Shown here: positions 10,459 to 19,732 of the stretch, in pieces
Layout of the letters: every line of letters starts with the position of its first letter
Position numbering within the stretch: position 1 is the first letter of the stretch
Origin: Halomicrobium mukohataei DSM 12286
Lineage (GTDB): Archaea; Halobacteriota; Halobacteria; Halobacteriales; Haloarculaceae
Direction: 5' to 3'
DNA length: 32,000 nt
NCBI RefSeq assembly: GCF_000023965.1
Contig: NC_013202.1
Span: 1,050,001-1,082,000, forward strand
Program-made: the position numbers and the translations under genes
Notes under the pieces: generated by a model
Told to the model about the DNA's origin: nothing
The model's database searches: none
What the model saw: only the letters and a program-made list of their open reading frames with translations

Positions 10459-10603
10459 ATGCTCACAGCCATTGTTTGGTCAGTATATACACTCGTTCTT
10501 TCGACAAATCCGCCGTGTAAGAGCGGGAAACAAAGACTTAGGAATCGCTCAAGACAGCGATTTTATGTAGCTCACAAGAGAGAGTGATCGAATATCTCTA
10601 CCG

Positions 10604-10774
10604 TCACCTTGACAAAATCAGAAGTGCCGCTGCAAGAACTAACACACCAATAGTAACATAAAACAACACTTGAGGGCTGGTGATTAGAACTGCAAACAAA
10701 ATGAGGTACCCAATAATGACGTATGCAGAGATTATTTTCCAGTCGCGTGTGATGGCGTCAGCCGAGTGATTCAT
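10604..10774 (-). CDS. small 2-TM membrane protein (56 aa) in an AT-rich patch
   Basis: I chose the ATG at 10774 (MNHSADAITRDWK...) over the TTG start of the track ORF. Two hydrophobic helices are present. Low-GC codon usage is unlike the neighbouring genes. Confidence 0.4.
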   Translation of the reverse strand: MNHSADAITRDWKIISAYVIIGYLILFAVLITSPQVLFYVTIGVLVLAAALLILSR

Positions 10775-10902
10775 CGGTTTAGTAGCTTTCAATCTATGTT
10801 CATTTGTGCCACGGAAATAGATTCGGTTAACTCGCACATCTACCAAACAGCAGATTCTCCGGAGACACTATGAGACGAACCCAAGTATAGCAGCCGTGTC
10901 AC

Positions 10903-11055
10903 TCAAATCAACTCCTGACGAGACGGTGTCTCACGGCGCAGCGCTGACTCCATCAGCGTCGATTCCACGAGGGGGACATCACCCGAGAACTCGATCTCGT
11001 CGTGCCAGATCTGTAGTTGCTTCGTGCGGGTGTCAAACGACTCGCGCCGCCACTC
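10903..11055 (-). pseudogene. orphan 3' gene fragment without a start codon (…EWRRESFDTRTKQLQIWHDEIEFSGDVPLVESTLMESALRRETPSRQELI*)
   Basis: A 50-codon open frame has strong G/C third-position bias typical of haloarchaeal coding DNA. It has no usable start, and its 5' side runs straight into the family 2 palindromic element. Confidence 0.3.
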
Positions 11056-11138
11056 ATACGGATTATTGTAGCGATTTACCGGTGATCGTCTACTCCGTGG
11101 CGACGATCACCGGTAAGCAACTACAATAAACCGTATCA
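11054..11138. repeat. palindromic element, family 2, copy B (85 bp)
   Basis: In ilvE sense it reads TGATACGGTTTATTGTAG..TTACCGGTGATCGTC-loop-GACGATCACCGGTAA..CTACAATAATCCGTATGA. The inner stem is a perfect 15 bp. The outer arms resemble 30471-30556. Confidence 0.75.
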
Positions 11139-12074
11139 GACGTACTTGAACCAGTCGTCGTACTGCTCGGGTGGCTCTTCGAGGATGTCGAAAAACCGCG
11201 TCTGGATCTCGTCGGTGACCGGCCCCTTCGTTCCGGCACCGATCTCGTTGTCGTCGACGCTGCGGATCGGCGTCACCTCGGCGGCGGTGCCGGTGAAGAA
11301 CAGTTCGTCGGCGGCGTACAGCTCGCCCCGCGAGATGGTGGCGTCGTCGTGGACGGTGTAGCCCAGATCCTCGGCGAGGGTAATGACGCTGCGGCGGGTG
11401 ATGCCGTCGAGGATCGACTCGGCCAGCCCGGTCGTGTAGATCTCGCCGTCGCGGACGAGGAAGATGTTCTCGCCCGGCCCCTCGGCGACGTTGCCCTCCT
11501 TGTTGAGGACGATCGCCTCGCCGTAGTCGTTGCCCTTTGCCTCCAGCGAGGCGAGGACGCTGTTGACGTAGGCTCCCGTCGTCTTCGCGCTGGTCGGGAT
11601 CTGGCTGGAGGCGTGCTTGCGCCACGAGGAGATCGCCGTGTCGATACCCTCTTCGAGCGCTTCCTCGCCGAGGTAGGCACCCCACGGCCAGACGCCGATG
11701 GCGGTCTCGACTGGCGACTCGCTCGGGTTGAGCCCCAGCGGGCCGTAGCCGTAGAAGGCGATCGGGCGGATGTAACACGACTCCAGCCCCTCCCGACGGA
11801 TCAGCTCGACGGTCGCCTCGGTGAGTTCTTCCGGCGTGTAGGGAATCTCGATGTCGTAGACCTTCGCCGACTCGTACAGTCGGTCGAGGTGTTCCTCCCA
11901 GCGGAAGATCGCCGGGCCGTCGTCGGTGTCGTAACAGCGCACGCCCTCGAAGACGCCGGTGCCGTAGTGTAGCGCGTGAGTCAGGACGTGGACCTGTGCG
12001 TCCTCGAAGTCGACGAACTCGCCGTCCTGCCAGATCGTCTCGACCCCTTCGAACATCTCCGGGCGCTCGCTCAT
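11136..12074 (-). CDS. ilvE: branched-chain amino acid aminotransferase
   Basis: Class IV aminotransferase fold, with HALHYGTGVFEGVRCY, KTTGAYVNSVLA, EGPGENIF and FFTGTAAEVTPI. I chose the ATG at 12074 (MSERPEMF). The stop TGA is the first triplet of the family 2 element. Confidence 0.9.
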   Translation of the reverse strand: MSERPEMFEGVETIWQDGEFVDFEDAQVHVLTHALHYGTGVFEGVRCYDTDDGPAIFRWEEHLDRLYESAKVYDIEIPYTPEELTEATVELIRREGLESCYIRPIAFYGYGPLGLNPSESPVETAIGVWPWGAYLGEEALEEGIDTAISSWRKHASSQIPTSAKTTGAYVNSVLASLEAKGNDYGEAIVLNKEGNVAEGPGENIFLVRDGEIYTTGLAESILDGITRRSVITLAEDLGYTVHDDATISRGELYAADELFFTGTAAEVTPIRSVDDNEIGAGTKGPVTDEIQTRFFDILEEPPEQYDDWFKYV

Positions 12075-12229
12075 CGTGCCCACCCCTCGCGTGTGGCGTG
12101 GCGATCACAGCACTGTCCGCAACCAGTGTCCTCGAAGTGCATACCAGGGCATTGCGGCCCATCGTTAAGAGTGTTGACGATGTACGAGTCGATCTGACAC
12201 ACCGCGAGAACGTTCGGCGAGAGCGCCGG

Positions 12230-12289
12230 TTACGCGAGTCGCTCGACCAGCGCGCTGTCCTCGACGTAGGCCAGTCCCTCGCGGTCGGC
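12230..12289 (-). pseudogene. diverged duplicate of the ribB 3' end ([19 protein letters not shown])
   Basis: It aligns codon for codon with the last 20 codons of ribB at 13709-13768 (48/60 nt by my count). The two share an identical 16-mer, CCTCGACGTAGGCCAG, at 12259-12274 and 13738-13753. Confidence 0.7.
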
Positions 12290-12338
12290 ATTGGTTCTAA
12301 TATCTATAGGGCGAAAATACACTATATAAGAAACCGAT

Positions 12339-12638
12339 TCAGGAGAATATTTTGAGTGCCCACAGTACGGCGGCAATGGTCATGAGAATAGTTCCAATAT
12401 ACCAAATCCATGCTTTCGATAGGATACGGGCCCCATCACTATCGAAAGACGGAATTTTACCTGATTTTCCACCAATTGCGTAAAGCATACCACTTGCTAT
12501 CATTAATATACCCGCAAGTGTCATTCTATTCAATACAAAGTGAAAACGCAAATCAGATTCAACGAGCCCGTCAAGAGTTATAATTGTACCAAGTAATACA
12601 GTAGACAATCCAAATGAAATTTTACCCATTCTTCCCAT
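12339..12638 (-). CDS. small 3-TM membrane protein (99 aa) in the AT-rich cassette
   Basis: ATG at 12638 (or 12629). Three hydrophobic segments and low-GC codon usage. It has its own AT-rich upstream region (ATATTATATTTTT). No family recognised. Confidence 0.6.
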   Translation of the reverse strand: MGRMGKISFGLSTVLLGTIITLDGLVESDLRFHFVLNRMTLAGILMIASGMLYAIGGKSGKIPSFDSDGARILSKAWIWYIGTILMTIAAVLWALKIFS

Positions 12639-12695
12639 ATCTTTTACACTCCTGAATAATACCCAAGAACCATATTATATTTTTGGCAAATATAA

Positions 12696-13526
12696 TCAAC
12701 CGCAGAGATCTTCCGCGTACTCTTCTTTGATACAGGCGTTAACTGTATCTTTACAGCCCAAACAATCTACGTTACCCAATAGACCCTGGGCGATCAAAGC
12801 GAGTACACACGCGTAGCATGCTGGATTATACCAGCTGGGAACTAATTTACAGCCACTACAACCAACGCCTGTGGCAGCGATACTAGTAATCCGACCCAAG
12901 CATTCTCTGGACGGAGAGCAATTCACCCCAGTTTCAATACGGCAAGTATCACATTCACCTTCAGGAGGGTCATACCAGACTTCATTACCAACACCTTGCG
13001 TACGCAACGTATTGATACTGGTCGAATCAGTCTTGACAATGTCGCCGTCAACATAATATCGTTCAGACTGGAGTGTTGAACCAGTAGACACAATGTTGTA
13101 ACCTGCTACCGTGGGTTCGTTTTCGTTTACTTCTTCTGGATAAGTATCTAATTGATCTATCCCATTATCGAGAATGAATTTTTCTGTCTCGTCTGTATCT
13201 TCGTAAACTGCTGACACGACAACCCTCTCTTCTCCATTTTCTTCGGTTACTCGTGTTGCACTCGCAGATTGCATCGTAACACTTCGTTTACCACCCTCAG
13301 CCGAATCAACAACCATCTCACGCCAGATCTTTCTCCACTCTCTACCAGTTCGCGCCCTTTGTATGGCCTCCCACTTTTCCCAACCCGATAGCTCCACCAC
13401 GTCCATACCTGATAGGTTCTCTGATACTTCTTGGGCAGTGACAGTGCCGGCTGAAACTGTCGTTAAACTGGCTGTACCGAGTGATTTGAGTGCCTTTCTT
13501 CTGGATATTTTATTCTCTTCGGGCAT
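12696..13526 (-). CDS. halocin C8-type bacteriocin precursor (Tat signal, long pro-region, Cys-rich C-terminal domain)
   Basis: I chose the ATG at 13526 (MPEENKISRRKALKSLG.. has a twin-arginine motif) over the TTG track start. The C-terminal ~86 aa contain 12 Cys, including GCSGCK, and end in ...CIKEEYAEDLCG. This resembles my recollection of HalC8 (GCSACK ... ACNRAGLC). The gene is AT-rich. Confidence 0.7.
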   Translation of the reverse strand: MPEENKISRRKALKSLGTASLTTVSAGTVTAQEVSENLSGMDVVELSGWEKWEAIQRARTGREWRKIWREMVVDSAEGGKRSVTMQSASATRVTEENGEERVVVSAVYEDTDETEKFILDNGIDQLDTYPEEVNENEPTVAGYNIVSTGSTLQSERYYVDGDIVKTDSTSINTLRTQGVGNEVWYDPPEGECDTCRIETGVNCSPSRECLGRITSIAATGVGCSGCKLVPSWYNPACYACVLALIAQGLLGNVDCLGCKDTVNACIKEEYAEDLCG

Positions 13527-13708
13527 CGAGTTACTATATATCTCCAAGTAAAAAAAGCTTTCATATTTCAAATATTTAATATTAGATCTACAAGATGTTT
13601 TTAAATAGTTGGAGAATCGCTAATAATCTCCCCTGACGACATGATATGAGTCGTTCATACGTCCTGCGCAGTATATGAGAGAAAAAAATCAACGCATTTT
13701 GTAGATTT

Positions 13709-14377
13709 TCACATCAGCCGTTCGACGAGAGCGCTCCCCTCGACGTAGGCCAGCCCCTCGCGCTCGGCGTAGGCTCGCGCCGCCGCCGGCGTCAGTGCGC
13801 CGCCGGTCTCGTCGTCGAGCATCTCACAGACCACGACTGCCGGGGGCTGGTCGGCCGCCGCGGCGACGGCCAGCCCGAGTTCGGTGTGTCCCAGCCGGTC
13901 CGAGAGCAGTCCGGGCGCACCGCGCAGCAGCGTCACGTGGCCCGGCGACCGGAACTGTTCGGCGAAGGTCGTTCCGTCGGGCTCGCTCGCGGCCCCTGCG
14001 AGTTCGGTGATCGTCAGCGACCGGTCCTCGTCGGTGATGCCGGTGTGGGTGTCGCGGTGGTTGACCGTCAGCGAGAACGACGAGCGTTCGTCGTACCCCA
14101 GTTCGTGATCGGCGGCACTGGGGTGATCGAGCGACTCCTGCATGAACGGCAGGTCGAACGAATGGGCCACCGAATCCGAGAGCGCGACACAGACCAGTCC
14201 GCCGGCGTCGTTGCGCAGTCGGGCGACGGCGTCGGGCGTCACTGCGCCGGCCGGATACACCAGATCGACCTCGCCCTCGCGATCGGCCGCGTCGTGGATC
14301 AGGATCGGCTGGCCGCGGCCAAAGGCCGCGATGGCGTCGTCGGCACCCGTCGCTGCCTGCTCACTGCTCCGAGACAT
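13709..14377 (-). CDS. ribB: 3,4-dihydroxy-2-butanone-4-phosphate synthase
   Basis: [32 protein letters not shown] and RSPGHV are the DHBP synthase signatures. It overlaps the ribK 3' end by 17 nt. Confidence 0.9.
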
Positions 14378-17154: not shown

Positions 17155-17634
17155 ATGGAACGGACCAGCATCGACGACGTGGACGCGCGGATCGGTCCCG
17201 CGGCCGTCAAGCGAGCGCTCGGCCCGGCGCTGGAGACGACCGAGGTCGCTCTCAACTACTACGAACTCGCGCCCGGCGACAGCTTCGGCTTCGGCTATCA
17301 CCGCCACAGCGATCAGGAAGAGGTCTTCTACGTCTTTCAGGGGACCGCCACCTTCGAGACCGAGGACGGGCCGGTAGCGGTCGGTCCCGACGAGGTGATC
17401 CGGTTCGCGCCGGGCGAGTGGCAGCTCGGTCGCAACGCGGGCGACGAGCGAGTCGTCGCACTGGCCGTCGGTGCTCCCGAAGCCAGCGGCGACACGGAGA
17501 TGGTACGTGCGTGTCCCGACTGTGAGGAGCGAACCGAACAGACCGTCGACTGGGCCGACGACGGCGACGCTCTCGTGACGCTGTGTGTCGACTGCGGTGC
17601 CAGAACCGGGCGATTCGAATATAGTAGCCATTGA
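17155..17634 (+). CDS. cupin-domain protein with a C-terminal zinc ribbon
   Basis: The cupin motifs are GYHRHSDQEEVFYVFQG and IRFAPGEW. CPDCE...CVDCG forms a zinc ribbon. The last four codons (YSSH) and the stop lie inside family 1 element copy 2. Confidence 0.8.
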   Translation: MERTSIDDVDARIGPAAVKRALGPALETTEVALNYYELAPGDSFGFGYHRHSDQEEVFYVFQGTATFETEDGPVAVGPDEVIRFAPGEWQLGRNAGDERVVALAVGAPEASGDTEMVRACPDCEERTEQTVDWADDGDALVTLCVDCGARTGRFEYSSH

Positions 17635-17703
17635 AAATCAATGCACACCCGATCGCACGACAGCAGTGCGATCGGTGTGTCAATCGTTTCAATTGTTACT
17701 ATA
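17620..17703. repeat. palindromic MITE-like element, family 1, copy 2 (84 bp)
   Basis: It is 83/84 identical to 2465-2548. The single G/A difference is in the hairpin loop (2507 vs 17662). Confidence 0.9.
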
Positions 17704-17704
17704 G

Positions 17705-17819
17705 CTACTCGAAGGCGTCGATGCCGGTCAGATCGGCCCCGAGGATCAGCGTGTGGATGTCGTGAGTCCCCTCGTAGGTGTAGACGGTCTCCATGTTTGC
17801 GGCGTGGCACATCGACGGG
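17705..17819 (-). pseudogene. duplicated 3' end of the acyl-CoA dehydrogenase gene (left copy of the 118-bp direct repeat 17702-17819)
   Basis: 107 nt are identical to 19615-19721. Identity then continues to 17819/19732 with 2 mismatches. The fragment encodes ...[33 protein letters not shown] with no upstream gene body. Confidence 0.85.
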
Positions 17820-18057: not shown

Positions 18058-19488
18058 ATGCCACGCCCGGCCACCGTACTCCTTGTCGTACTCGTTTCCG
18101 TCGGTGGTGTCGGACTGGTGCTCTCGACGAACGTCGTCGCGCTCGACGAGGACGGGATGCCGGCGGTAGCGGAACTGCAGCAAGACACGGATCCACTCGT
18201 CGCCGATACGGACGATGACGGTCTCGACGACGGTTCCGAAGTCGACGAGCTCGGGACGGATCCAGTGGTCGCCGATACGGACGATGATGGTCTCGACGAC
18301 GGTTCTGAAGTCGACGAGCTCGGGACGGATCCAGTGGTCGCCGACACGGACGAGGACGGTCTCGACGACGGTTCCGAAGTCGACGAGCTCGGGACGGATC
18401 CAGTGGTCGCCGACACGGACGGCGACGGTCTCGACGACGGCTCCGAAGTATATACGCACGAGACGGGGCCGATGTCGGCCGATACAGACCACGATGGACT
18501 CAACGACAGTACCGAGATCGAGATCCACGGAACAGACCCCACCTCGGCCGACAGCGACGCCGACGATCTCGAAGACCTCGACGAAATCGAGCTTCACGGC
18601 ACAGATCCTGCGGCAGCCGACACGGACGGGGACGGCCTCGACGACGGTGCCGAAGTGTACCAGCACCGAACTGGCACGACGACAGCTGACACGGACGGTG
18701 ACGGTCTCGACGACGGCACAGAGATCGAAGTCCACGGTACGGATCCCACGGCAGCCGACACGGACGGAGACGGCCTCGAAGACGCTGCCGAAATCGAGAT
18801 TCATGACACGGACCCCCTACAGGCCGACATGGACGGGGACGGTCTCAAGGACGGTGACGAAGTCGACCACGACGCGCTTGACGAGGCAGATCCATTCCGT
18901 ATGGATATTTTCGTCGAGGTAGACTACGTCGAGGGATACAAACCGCCGACGCGATCTCTGGAGATGGTCAGGGAAGCGTACGCGGCGGCACCGATATCGA
19001 ACCCGGACAGTTCAACTGGTATTCGACTCCACATCAGTTACGGCGAGGCGATCGATACTGACGGTCGCGTTAGTCTCGACGAGCTGCGGCAACGTTACAC
19101 GCCCGTATACTTCGATCACGAAGACGACGGTTACCACTACGGCATCGCGGTCGGCGACGCTCGGCACGACGCCCGCTCCGTCGCTGGGGTAACCCAAGGC
19201 TGGGGCGACAACAGACCATTTCTCTTCGAGACGGCCCGAGACGACAGTGACCAGACGCTACCCGACGACTCCATCGCGAGTACATTCATGCACGAACTGG
19301 GCCACTCGAACGGGATCCGACCGAACGACTACGAGGGCGTCGACTCGAAGGCTGTCAGTACAGACCGCTACGAAAGTGCGATGAACTACAACGCTCCGAA
19401 TGGGTACGTGGGCTACAACGACGGAGTGCCGTTCGACGACTGGGACCACATCGAGCACCACCTCCACACGCCGGACGTACGAGACTGA
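18058..19488 (+). CDS. secreted protein with 10 thrombospondin-type-3-like calcium-binding repeats and a C-terminal metzincin-like zinc peptidase domain
   Basis: I chose the ATG at 18058 (MPRPATVLLVVLVSVGGVGLVL is a signal/anchor). There are ten DxDxDGLxDxxE units. HELGH lies at 19291-19305 and a Met-turn-like SAMNY at 19375-19389. The track ORF's upstream 139 codons start inside the palindromic element. Confidence 0.75.
   Translation: MPRPATVLLVVLVSVGGVGLVLSTNVVALDEDGMPAVAELQQDTDPLVADTDDDGLDDGSEVDELGTDPVVADTDDDGLDDGSEVDELGTDPVVADTDEDGLDDGSEVDELGTDPVVADTDGDGLDDGSEVYTHETGPMSADTDHDGLNDSTEIEIHGTDPTSADSDADDLEDLDEIELHGTDPAAADTDGDGLDDGAEVYQHRTGTTTADTDGDGLDDGTEIEVHGTDPTAADTDGDGLEDAAEIEIHDTDPLQADMDGDGLKDGDEVDHDALDEADPFRMDIFVEVDYVEGYKPPTRSLEMVREAYAAAPISNPDSSTGIRLHISYGEAIDTDGRVSLDELRQRYTPVYFDHEDDGYHYGIAVGDARHDARSVAGVTQGWGDNRPFLFETARDDSDQTLPDDSIASTFMHELGHSNGIRPNDYEGVDSKAVSTDRYESAMNYNAPNGYVGYNDGVPFDDWDHIEHHLHTPDVRD
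18190..18465 (+). repeat. four tandem 69-bp (23-codon) repeats, about 94% identical, within the TSP3 region
   Basis: The units are 18190-18258, 18259-18327, 18328-18396 and 18397-18465 (the last diverges at its end). Neighbouring full units differ at 4/69 positions. More diverged units continue to about 18870. Confidence 0.9.
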
Positions 19489-19614: not shown

Positions 19615-19732
19615 TAGCTACTCGAAGGCGTCGATGCCGGTCAGATCGGCCCCGAGGATCAGCGTGTGGATGTCGTGAGTCCCCTCGTAGGTGTAGACGG
19701 TCTCCATGTTTGCGGCGTGGCGCATCGGCGGG
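19615..19732. repeat. right copy of the 118-bp direct repeat (functional 3' end of the acyl-CoA dehydrogenase gene)
   Basis: See 17702-17819. The offset between copies is 1913 bp. Confidence 0.9.

Follow-up and report, generated by a model that had tools for sequence, protein, structure and literature searches.

A candidate two-gene antimicrobial cassette in Halomicrobium mukohataei, with a precursor that appears to join a halocin C8-related pro-domain to a distinct 12-cysteine end

To our knowledge, genes are known for only a handful of archaeal antimicrobial proteins: halocins C8, H4 and S8/R1, and the sulfolobicins. Halocin C8 (HalC8) derives from a precursor that is exported by the twin-arginine translocation (Tat) pathway and comprises an N-terminal immunity part, HalI, and a C-terminal peptide of 76 amino acids (aa), and the mechanism of the cleavage between them is reported as unknown. 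In Natrinema, the HalC8 locus also includes halR, halU, and the ATP-binding cassette (ABC) transporter genes halT1-3, and recent surveys define the halocin C8 family by the models TIGR04449 and PF22862 (Strock & Warnecke preprint, doi 10.64898/2026.07.27.741052). Here we describe a gene from a 32,000-nt stretch of Halomicrobium mukohataei DSM 12286 (NC_013202.1, positions 1,050,001 to 1,082,000; hereafter, the window), whose product a first-pass annotation had read as a HalC8-type precursor. The best reading of this protein is as a member of a sister family of HalC8-type precursors that is rare and unannotated, in which a pro-domain apparently related to HalI is followed by a different, 12-cysteine C-terminal domain. 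Judged by its sequence, it is a candidate new archaeal antimicrobial and not a copy of halocin C8, and by analogy the AT-rich cassette in which it lies is probably a toxin plus immunity module.

The precursor gene, as called in the open reading frame (ORF) list, and the parts of its product are located as follows.

12696..13526, minus strand: precursor gene, ATG start, 276 aa, with the stop codon at 12696-12698.
13431..13526, minus strand: Tat-type signal, residues 1-32 (SRRKALK, then a hydrophobic stretch, then VTA/QE).
12999..13430, minus strand: acidic pro-domain, residues 33-176 (~145 aa), isoelectric point (pI) 4.3, with a predicted beta-alpha-alpha-beta6 order.
12699..12998, minus strand: linker (~177-189) and 12-cysteine C-terminal domain, residues 177-276, the putative released peptide of ~9-10.5 kDa.

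The translation bears out the 276-aa product, with SRRKALKSLG near its N-terminus, and every part of the proposed HalC8-like plan is seen: a Tat signal, an acidic pro-domain, a linker, and a cysteine (Cys)-rich C-terminal ~90 aa. All of the reported motifs (CDTC, CSPSREC, GCSGC, ACYAC, DCLGC, AC, and LC) and all 12 Cys of the C-terminal ~86 aa are likewise present, within the final 87 residues (~9.0 kDa, or 10.5 kDa with the linker; pI 4.5). The acidity ascribed to the region before them is real, whereas the C-terminus, described as hydrophobic, is just mildly so (grand average of hydropathy, +0.27). ProC8 (UniProt P83716; HalI plus HalC8) is comparable in having a Tat-type signal, a total length of ~280-310 aa, and, behind a linker, a C-terminal piece of 75-100 aa that is rich in Cys and mildly hydrophobic. 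A TTG codon 45 nt upstream offers an alternative start (12696..13571, 291 aa in the ORF list), but the ATG is preferred because the N-termini of homologues match it (MVEENGISRRR in P0003 and MKKESSISRRK at locus L006). The signal matches the TIGR02811 TAT target model weakly (E 0.024), and SRR is kept in the 12 family members whose called product spans the N-terminus. In the AlphaFold2 (AF2) model of the window protein, the mean predicted local distance difference test score (pLDDT) is 72, with values of <50 for residues 1-31, 86-94 for the N-domain, low values for linker residues 176-180, and 62-78 for the Cys domain. The same precursor protein is called on 11 contigs of public assemblies, with the same context at all of the 5 places listed. 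The window is 100% identical to CP045142.1 (GCA_009217585.1) across 12.8 kb, and three of four sequencing-run assemblies equal it over their whole lengths, the fourth (SRR017870) having one base different.

A word-index protein search returned the window protein itself and one metagenomic protein (45% identity), and nothing more. An exhaustive HMMER search with the two-sequence profile against 1.84 billion cluster representatives yielded 16 proteins (E 1e-160 to 6e-4; 224-327 aa) with one shared plan, consisting of a Tat signal, a pro-domain, a variable linker, and a Cys-rich domain. We define the family as the window protein and P0002-P0015 (15 members), and set P0016 apart. In the HMMER search, the members of the family gave E-values of 7.5e-79 to 7.7e-05. 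Two motifs mark their pro-domain, V-x-E-x-NGE-x-RYVV-x-x-PY and FIQYNG-x-D, and every Cys among the 12 of the window protein is kept in 13-15 of the 15 members. The window protein has the Tat signal, the NGExRYVV/FIQYNG pro-domain, the 12-Cys C-domain, and an adjacent gene for a small multi-pass membrane protein. One relative, P0009, is from the Halopiger djelfimassiliensis assembly GCA_000455345.1, and the remaining ones are from hypersaline or other metagenome assemblies. No relative was found with family peptide patterns in species-representative genomes, from which the source organism itself is apparently absent or masked. A tblastn search of the precursor against PLSDB plasmids and INPHARED phages also returned nothing, and there is therefore no evidence of a plasmid- or virus-borne precursor. 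In the literature searched, the family is not described, and an earlier mention in Makarova et al. 2019 (mBio 10:e00715-19) could still exist.

These relatives bear on whether the gene is a real one. It could instead be an ORF that is spurious or in decay, lying in AT-rich junk DNA that an old insertion left behind, given its odd composition, the lack of accessory genes, and the state of the closest metagenomic homologue (P0002, L006 1110-2047), in which a frameshift splits the ORF with the signal and N-terminus (1110-1325), including the SRR part, from the rest (1289-2047). That frameshift may be an assembly error or mark a pseudogene. We regard this explanation as very improbable: an ORF of 276 codons runs through DNA of 42-47% guanine plus cytosine (GC) and is identical in all assemblies of the organism, full-length homologues at 24-47% identity retain the signal, the N-domain motifs (NGExRYVV and FIQYNG), and the 12 Cys, and the N-domain is confidently folded in the AF2 model.

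For the C-terminal domain, the comparison with halocin C8 was made with TIGR04449 (halocin_C8_dom; curated cut-off, 24 bits), and for the N-terminal part with PF22862 (Hac8_like_N, the HalI immunity part). Neither TIGR04449 nor NF040679 matched the full window protein, its isolated 89-aa C-terminus, or P0002-P0015 at E<=10. As a positive control, a sequence taken as that of mature HalC8 scored 59.1 bits on TIGR04449, and the model also matched the Natrinema gari homologue P0017 (51.9 bits) and P0016 (30.7 bits). In a BLASTP comparison of the window protein with mature HalC8, the sole match was the 6-residue GCSGCK/GCSACK (E 0.52), in which the lysine is not conserved in the alignment of family relatives. 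When the Cys domains of the new family and of HalC8 were compared with hhalign, the probability was 0.1% in local, global, and relaxed modes. The first-pass annotation had taken the C-terminus to resemble mature HalC8, and had proposed a family-model search and a Cys-framework alignment as a check; on both counts the resemblance fails, as there is no family similarity and the spacing is not shared. In the subgroup that includes the window protein, the framework is CxxC-x7-9-C-x5-C-x13-14-CxxC-x8-13-CxxC-x13-15-CxxC-x6-C-x9-C, readable as three 4-Cys units with four CxxC pairs (six family members have the tenth Cys a few residues later). HalC8, by contrast, has 10 Cys in the framework C-x2-C-x7-C-x3-C-x7-C-x13-C-x7-C-x8-C-x8-C-x5-C, which the window protein does not fit, and the CxxC that looks shared is formed by the 5th and 6th Cys in the window protein and by the 1st and 2nd in HalC8. 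The domain is thus not HalC8 with two extra Cys, as had been suggested, and therefore appears to be a different Cys-rich module on a related pro-domain.

It could still be argued that the window protein is a very divergent, true member of the halocin C8 family, with a 12-Cys domain that descended from the HalC8 domain by the addition of two Cys. The shared precursor plan, the related pro-domain, and loose echoes in the sequence (GCSGCK vs GCSACK, and a C-terminal GC-x-D-x-V...AC...LC) would agree with such a descent. Yet the family models are silent at E<=10 for the window protein and for P0002-P0015 alike, against a 59-bit control, and the hhalign result of 0.1%, the dissimilar Cys frameworks, and the unconserved lysine of GCSGCK all make it quite unlikely. 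We therefore treat the domain, on its sequence, as a family distinct from the halocin C8 domain. Searches of the isolated domains, the full protein, and the relatives against Pfam, NCBIfam, and a PDB sequence profile returned nothing except weak Tat-signal matches, and no structural analogue of the AF2 model turned up in PDB or BFVD by Foldseek, with nothing better than E 0.06. The Cys domain is moderately confident in this model and poorly predicted in that of the HalC8-like P0022, so the folds of the two are not comparable.

The pro-domain gives a different result. The HalC8-like comparison set included sequences from Haloferax volcanii pHV4 and from Halobacterium salinarum and Haloferax larsenii plasmids, together with P0018-P0023 (all PF22862); a plasmid search and a last word-index search barely enlarged this alignment. 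With signals removed and the N-domains and Cys domains run separately, hhalign of the new-family N-domain against the HalC8-family N-domain gave a probability of 94.4% (E 8e-8), vs 0.4-0.6% for decoys in which either alignment was reversed. The order of predicted secondary structure is also common to both: in the AF2 model of the window protein, a strand (E42-45), two helices (H48-59 and H62-73), and then six strands follow one another, and in that of P0022 (mean pLDDT 52; N-domain 71-89) the same beta-alpha-alpha-beta6 order occurs at nearly equal positions (E41-43, H46-57, H60-71, then six strands). These observations support a predicted relationship of the pro-domain to HalI/Hac8_like_N at the superfamily level, as distinct from family membership. 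The first-pass annotation had correctly recognised a HalC8-style precursor, though its reason was partly wrong: the kinship holds through the N-terminal domain and does not extend to the C-terminal peptide.

A natural bridge between the two families is provided by P0016, a 281-aa metagenomic protein from a Logan assembly. Its signal, size, and N-domain are those of the new family (hhalign probability of 95.5%, E 1.4e-8, vs 0.7% against canonical HalC8 N-domains), whereas its C-terminus passes TIGR04449 (30.7 vs 24 bits) as a genuine HalC8 domain. Because both occur in one protein, nature has joined this type of pro-domain to HalC8, and P0016, as read from its sequence, shows a pro-domain that would be used with interchangeable Cys-rich ends.

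The second gene of the cassette, with the neighbouring genes of other loci that are compared with it, is given here.

12339..12638, minus strand: gene for a 99-aa partner protein with three predicted spans, a candidate immunity or partner protein.
L056 3033-3260 and 4304-4510, and L057 3026-3253 and 4299-4505: conserved genes for hydrophobic proteins annotated as hypothetical, of 75 aa (upstream, divergent) and 68 aa (downstream).
L055 4329-5021 (HalC8-like locus) and L064 950-1798 (new family): DUF8054 genes, with an N-terminal membrane span and C-terminal CxxC pairs.

The 99-aa gene lies 57 nt downstream of the precursor on the same strand, and its product has hydropathy segments at residues 7-26, 39-57, and 76-99. 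Homologues occur at the loci of the two closest precursor homologues, upstream of the precursor in both: on the same strand at L058 (3363-3656, E 1.8e-10), and divergent at L006 (606-866, E 3e-4 to 4e-5). Elsewhere in the family, P0004, P0005, P0009, and P0012 adjoin genes for 130-160-aa membrane proteins with a common RPPTWxD motif (those of L059 and L064 match at E 6e-11), and P0007 and P0010 have 79-89-aa three-span proteins downstream. In all 10 cases where the flanks of a family gene could be read, a gene for a small multi-pass membrane protein adjoins it. Close relatives have partners that are homologous to one another, distant relatives have unlike ones, and the gene order is shuffled; toxin/immunity pairs typically show this pattern. 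In Halobacterium salinarum and Haloferax larsenii, the HalC8-like genes have small membrane-protein genes on either side, and the 75-aa and 68-aa products listed above may serve classical HalC8 loci as immunity or partner proteins. The neighbourhoods of the two families overlap further in the DUF8054 gene beside P0005, a homologue of which (E 5e-28) lies downstream of the HalC8-like gene of Hfx. volcanii pHV4. The DUF8054 protein may act as an accessory factor common to halocin-type loci, and the window has no DUF8054 gene.

The two genes are the sole content of a short segment that differs sharply from the DNA around it.

12298..13708: two-gene AT-rich cassette of 1411 bp, 41.7% GC, between ribB and ilvE in surroundings of ~68% GC.
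13716..13776, minus strand: direct-repeat copy 1, inside the 3' end of intact ribB.
12232..12297 (repeat 12237-12297), minus strand: direct-repeat copy 2, an in-frame relic of the 3' end of ribB that has a stop codon of its own, beside the native ilvE upstream region.

The AT-richness relative to the neighbours that had been noted earlier is evident (GC of 0.42-0.46 in 12501-13500 vs ~0.66-0.72 nearby). It extends to GC at third codon positions, which is 0.40 in the precursor and 0.32 in the 99-aa gene vs 0.85-0.91 in the flanking ribB (13709..14377) and ilvE (11136..12083) and in rfk, also a neighbour. HalC8-like genes examined have 53-65% GC, whereas the window gene lies in this 1.4-kb AT-rich chromosomal cassette; the cassettes of relatives at L058 and L061 are islands of 35-49% GC within DNA of 63-67% GC. 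The cassette is bracketed by a direct repeat of 61 nt (82% identical; spacing, 1479) that corresponds to the last ~20 codons of ribB. The order rfk-ribB-ilvE is widespread in Halobacteria, with ilvE 60-180 bp after ribB in many genomes, and larger gaps between the two in other genomes hold ordinary GC-rich genes and no duplication. Among the genomes compared via RibB, no other duplication of the ribB tail and no other AT-rich insert was found, nor was an empty site in a close relative lacking the cassette, the closest genome being 72% identical. Around the cassettes of relatives, no flanking repeats were found on the short contigs available. The duplication suggests integration into the 3' end of a gene by an element that brings a replacement end, and the mechanism can only be inferred because no recombinase or integrase gene is present in the cassette. 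Together, the foreign composition and the ribB-end duplication indicate an acquired, dispensable cassette. A scan for bacterial-type promoters and terminators was uninformative, as the models are bacterial and the host is archaeal.

A second AT-rich patch is present at ~10470-10900 (GC of 0.47 in 10501-11000), between a DUF502-type gene and ilvE. It contains an 80-aa ORF (10604..10846, minus strand) whose product is hydrophobic in its C-terminal half; hhalign detected no similarity between this product and the 99-aa partner protein (0.4%).

We consider it reasonably probable that the cassette is a horizontally acquired two-gene module, encoding a pro-protein of ~30 kDa (Tat signal, HalI-superfamily pro-domain, and distinct 12-Cys domain) and a three-span membrane protein as a putative toxin/immunity pair. 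From the analogy with HalC8 and the genomic pattern, we infer that the precursor would be exported by the Tat pathway and cut in the linker, that the disulfide-rich C-terminal peptide would act on the envelope or membrane of competing haloarchaea, and that the producer would be protected by the pro-domain and/or the co-inherited membrane protein.

Several observations weigh against this interpretation. The N-domain link is visible at the profile-profile level only: its hhalign probability drops to 80.2% (E 1.4e-5) without P0016, to 5.8% for the window N-domain alone, and to 0.7% for the three closest members (no P0016) against HalC8 N-domains, and the PF22862 Pfam model has no direct match to the window protein or its relatives at E<=10 (it recognises the ProC8 type, as does TIGR04449). 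No known antimicrobial peptide family shows detectable similarity to the 12-Cys domain, which is modelled with only moderate confidence and whose four CxxC pairs could equally bind metal, and the evidence for the family consists of sequence and model data. The genes halR and halU and the ABC transporter genes are absent at the window locus; the annotation of the HalC8-like loci examined in Haloferax and Halobacterium likewise lacks halR, halU, and halT1-3, which are for this reason weakly defining.

Some of these points would suit a secreted or surface protein without an antagonistic role, in which the 12 Cys are metal-binding, redox, or structural, the membrane protein is an anchor or export partner, and the link to halocins is a shared carrier domain. 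Spacings such as CxxC-x10-CxxC resemble zinc-knuckle pairs, and the protein has no similarity to known toxins. The Tat signal is uninformative on function, since Tat is the route of most haloarchaeal secreted proteins. Against such a role stand the rare and patchy spread (16 clusters in 1.84 billion representatives), the recently acquired AT-rich mini-cassettes at unrelated chromosomal sites, the variation of the partner membrane proteins with the precursor, and the bona fide HalC8 domain that the same type of pro-domain carries in P0016. The distribution and partner pattern fit conflict modules better than housekeeping surface proteins, and we consider a non-antagonistic role unlikely. All three alternatives raised here are less well supported than a toxin/immunity module.

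Class II bacteriocin loci pair a precursor with a small membrane immunity protein, and polymorphic toxins join a constant carrier to a variable toxic end. The cassette resembles both in having a secreted precursor with an adjacent, co-varying multi-pass membrane protein, and in its apparently exchangeable C-terminal modules. This is a functional analogy only: there is no sequence relationship, export in those systems uses a leader peptide with an ABC transporter or Sec instead of Tat, and the pro-domain here is much larger. The HFX_0892/HmHapP system of Haloferax mediterranei, a secreted precursor that an extracellular serine protease cleaves into an inhibitory form (PMC12893001), was set aside as a relative, given its unrelated architecture: its active part is an N-terminal alpha-helical region, and the word cysteine is absent from the text of the paper. 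Compared by description only, it does offer protease activation as a possible processing route for the window precursor.

Elsewhere in the window, a large ORF contains about eleven tandem units of 69 nt (23 codons) each at 18133-18891; in the public annotation of an identical locus, its product has 476 aa and a faint thrombospondin type-3 repeat match. The gene is bracketed by a 118-nt direct repeat (17702-17819 and 19615-19732; 98% identical). An 87-nt element with inverted-repeat ends is present in two copies 15 kb apart (2465-2551 and 17620-17706; 99% identical), one of which abuts the 118-nt repeat; its form suggests either a hairpin or a mobile element of miniature size.

A broader picture can be offered tentatively, as a possibility that we hold to be doubtful at present. 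The HalI-like pro-domain may be a general carrier, perhaps with a role in self-protection, for polymorphic Cys-rich antimicrobial peptides of archaea. The H. mukohataei cassette would then be the first example from a cultured organism of a second, undescribed class of "warhead" with its own co-varying membrane immunity protein, moving as a minimal AT-rich unit of two genes, which inserts at, and replaces, the 3' end of ribB without a recombinase of its own. The duplicated ribB end itself points to a way in which very small haloarchaeal cassettes may integrate. Surveys based on TIGR04449 or on sequence search would overlook the 12-Cys family altogether. Should the 12-Cys peptide prove active, it would represent a new class of archaeocin from a cultivable, sequenced organism, the HalC8-type pro-domain would be shown to carry exchangeable toxic ends, and the cassette would provide a simple two-gene system for the study of processing and immunity.

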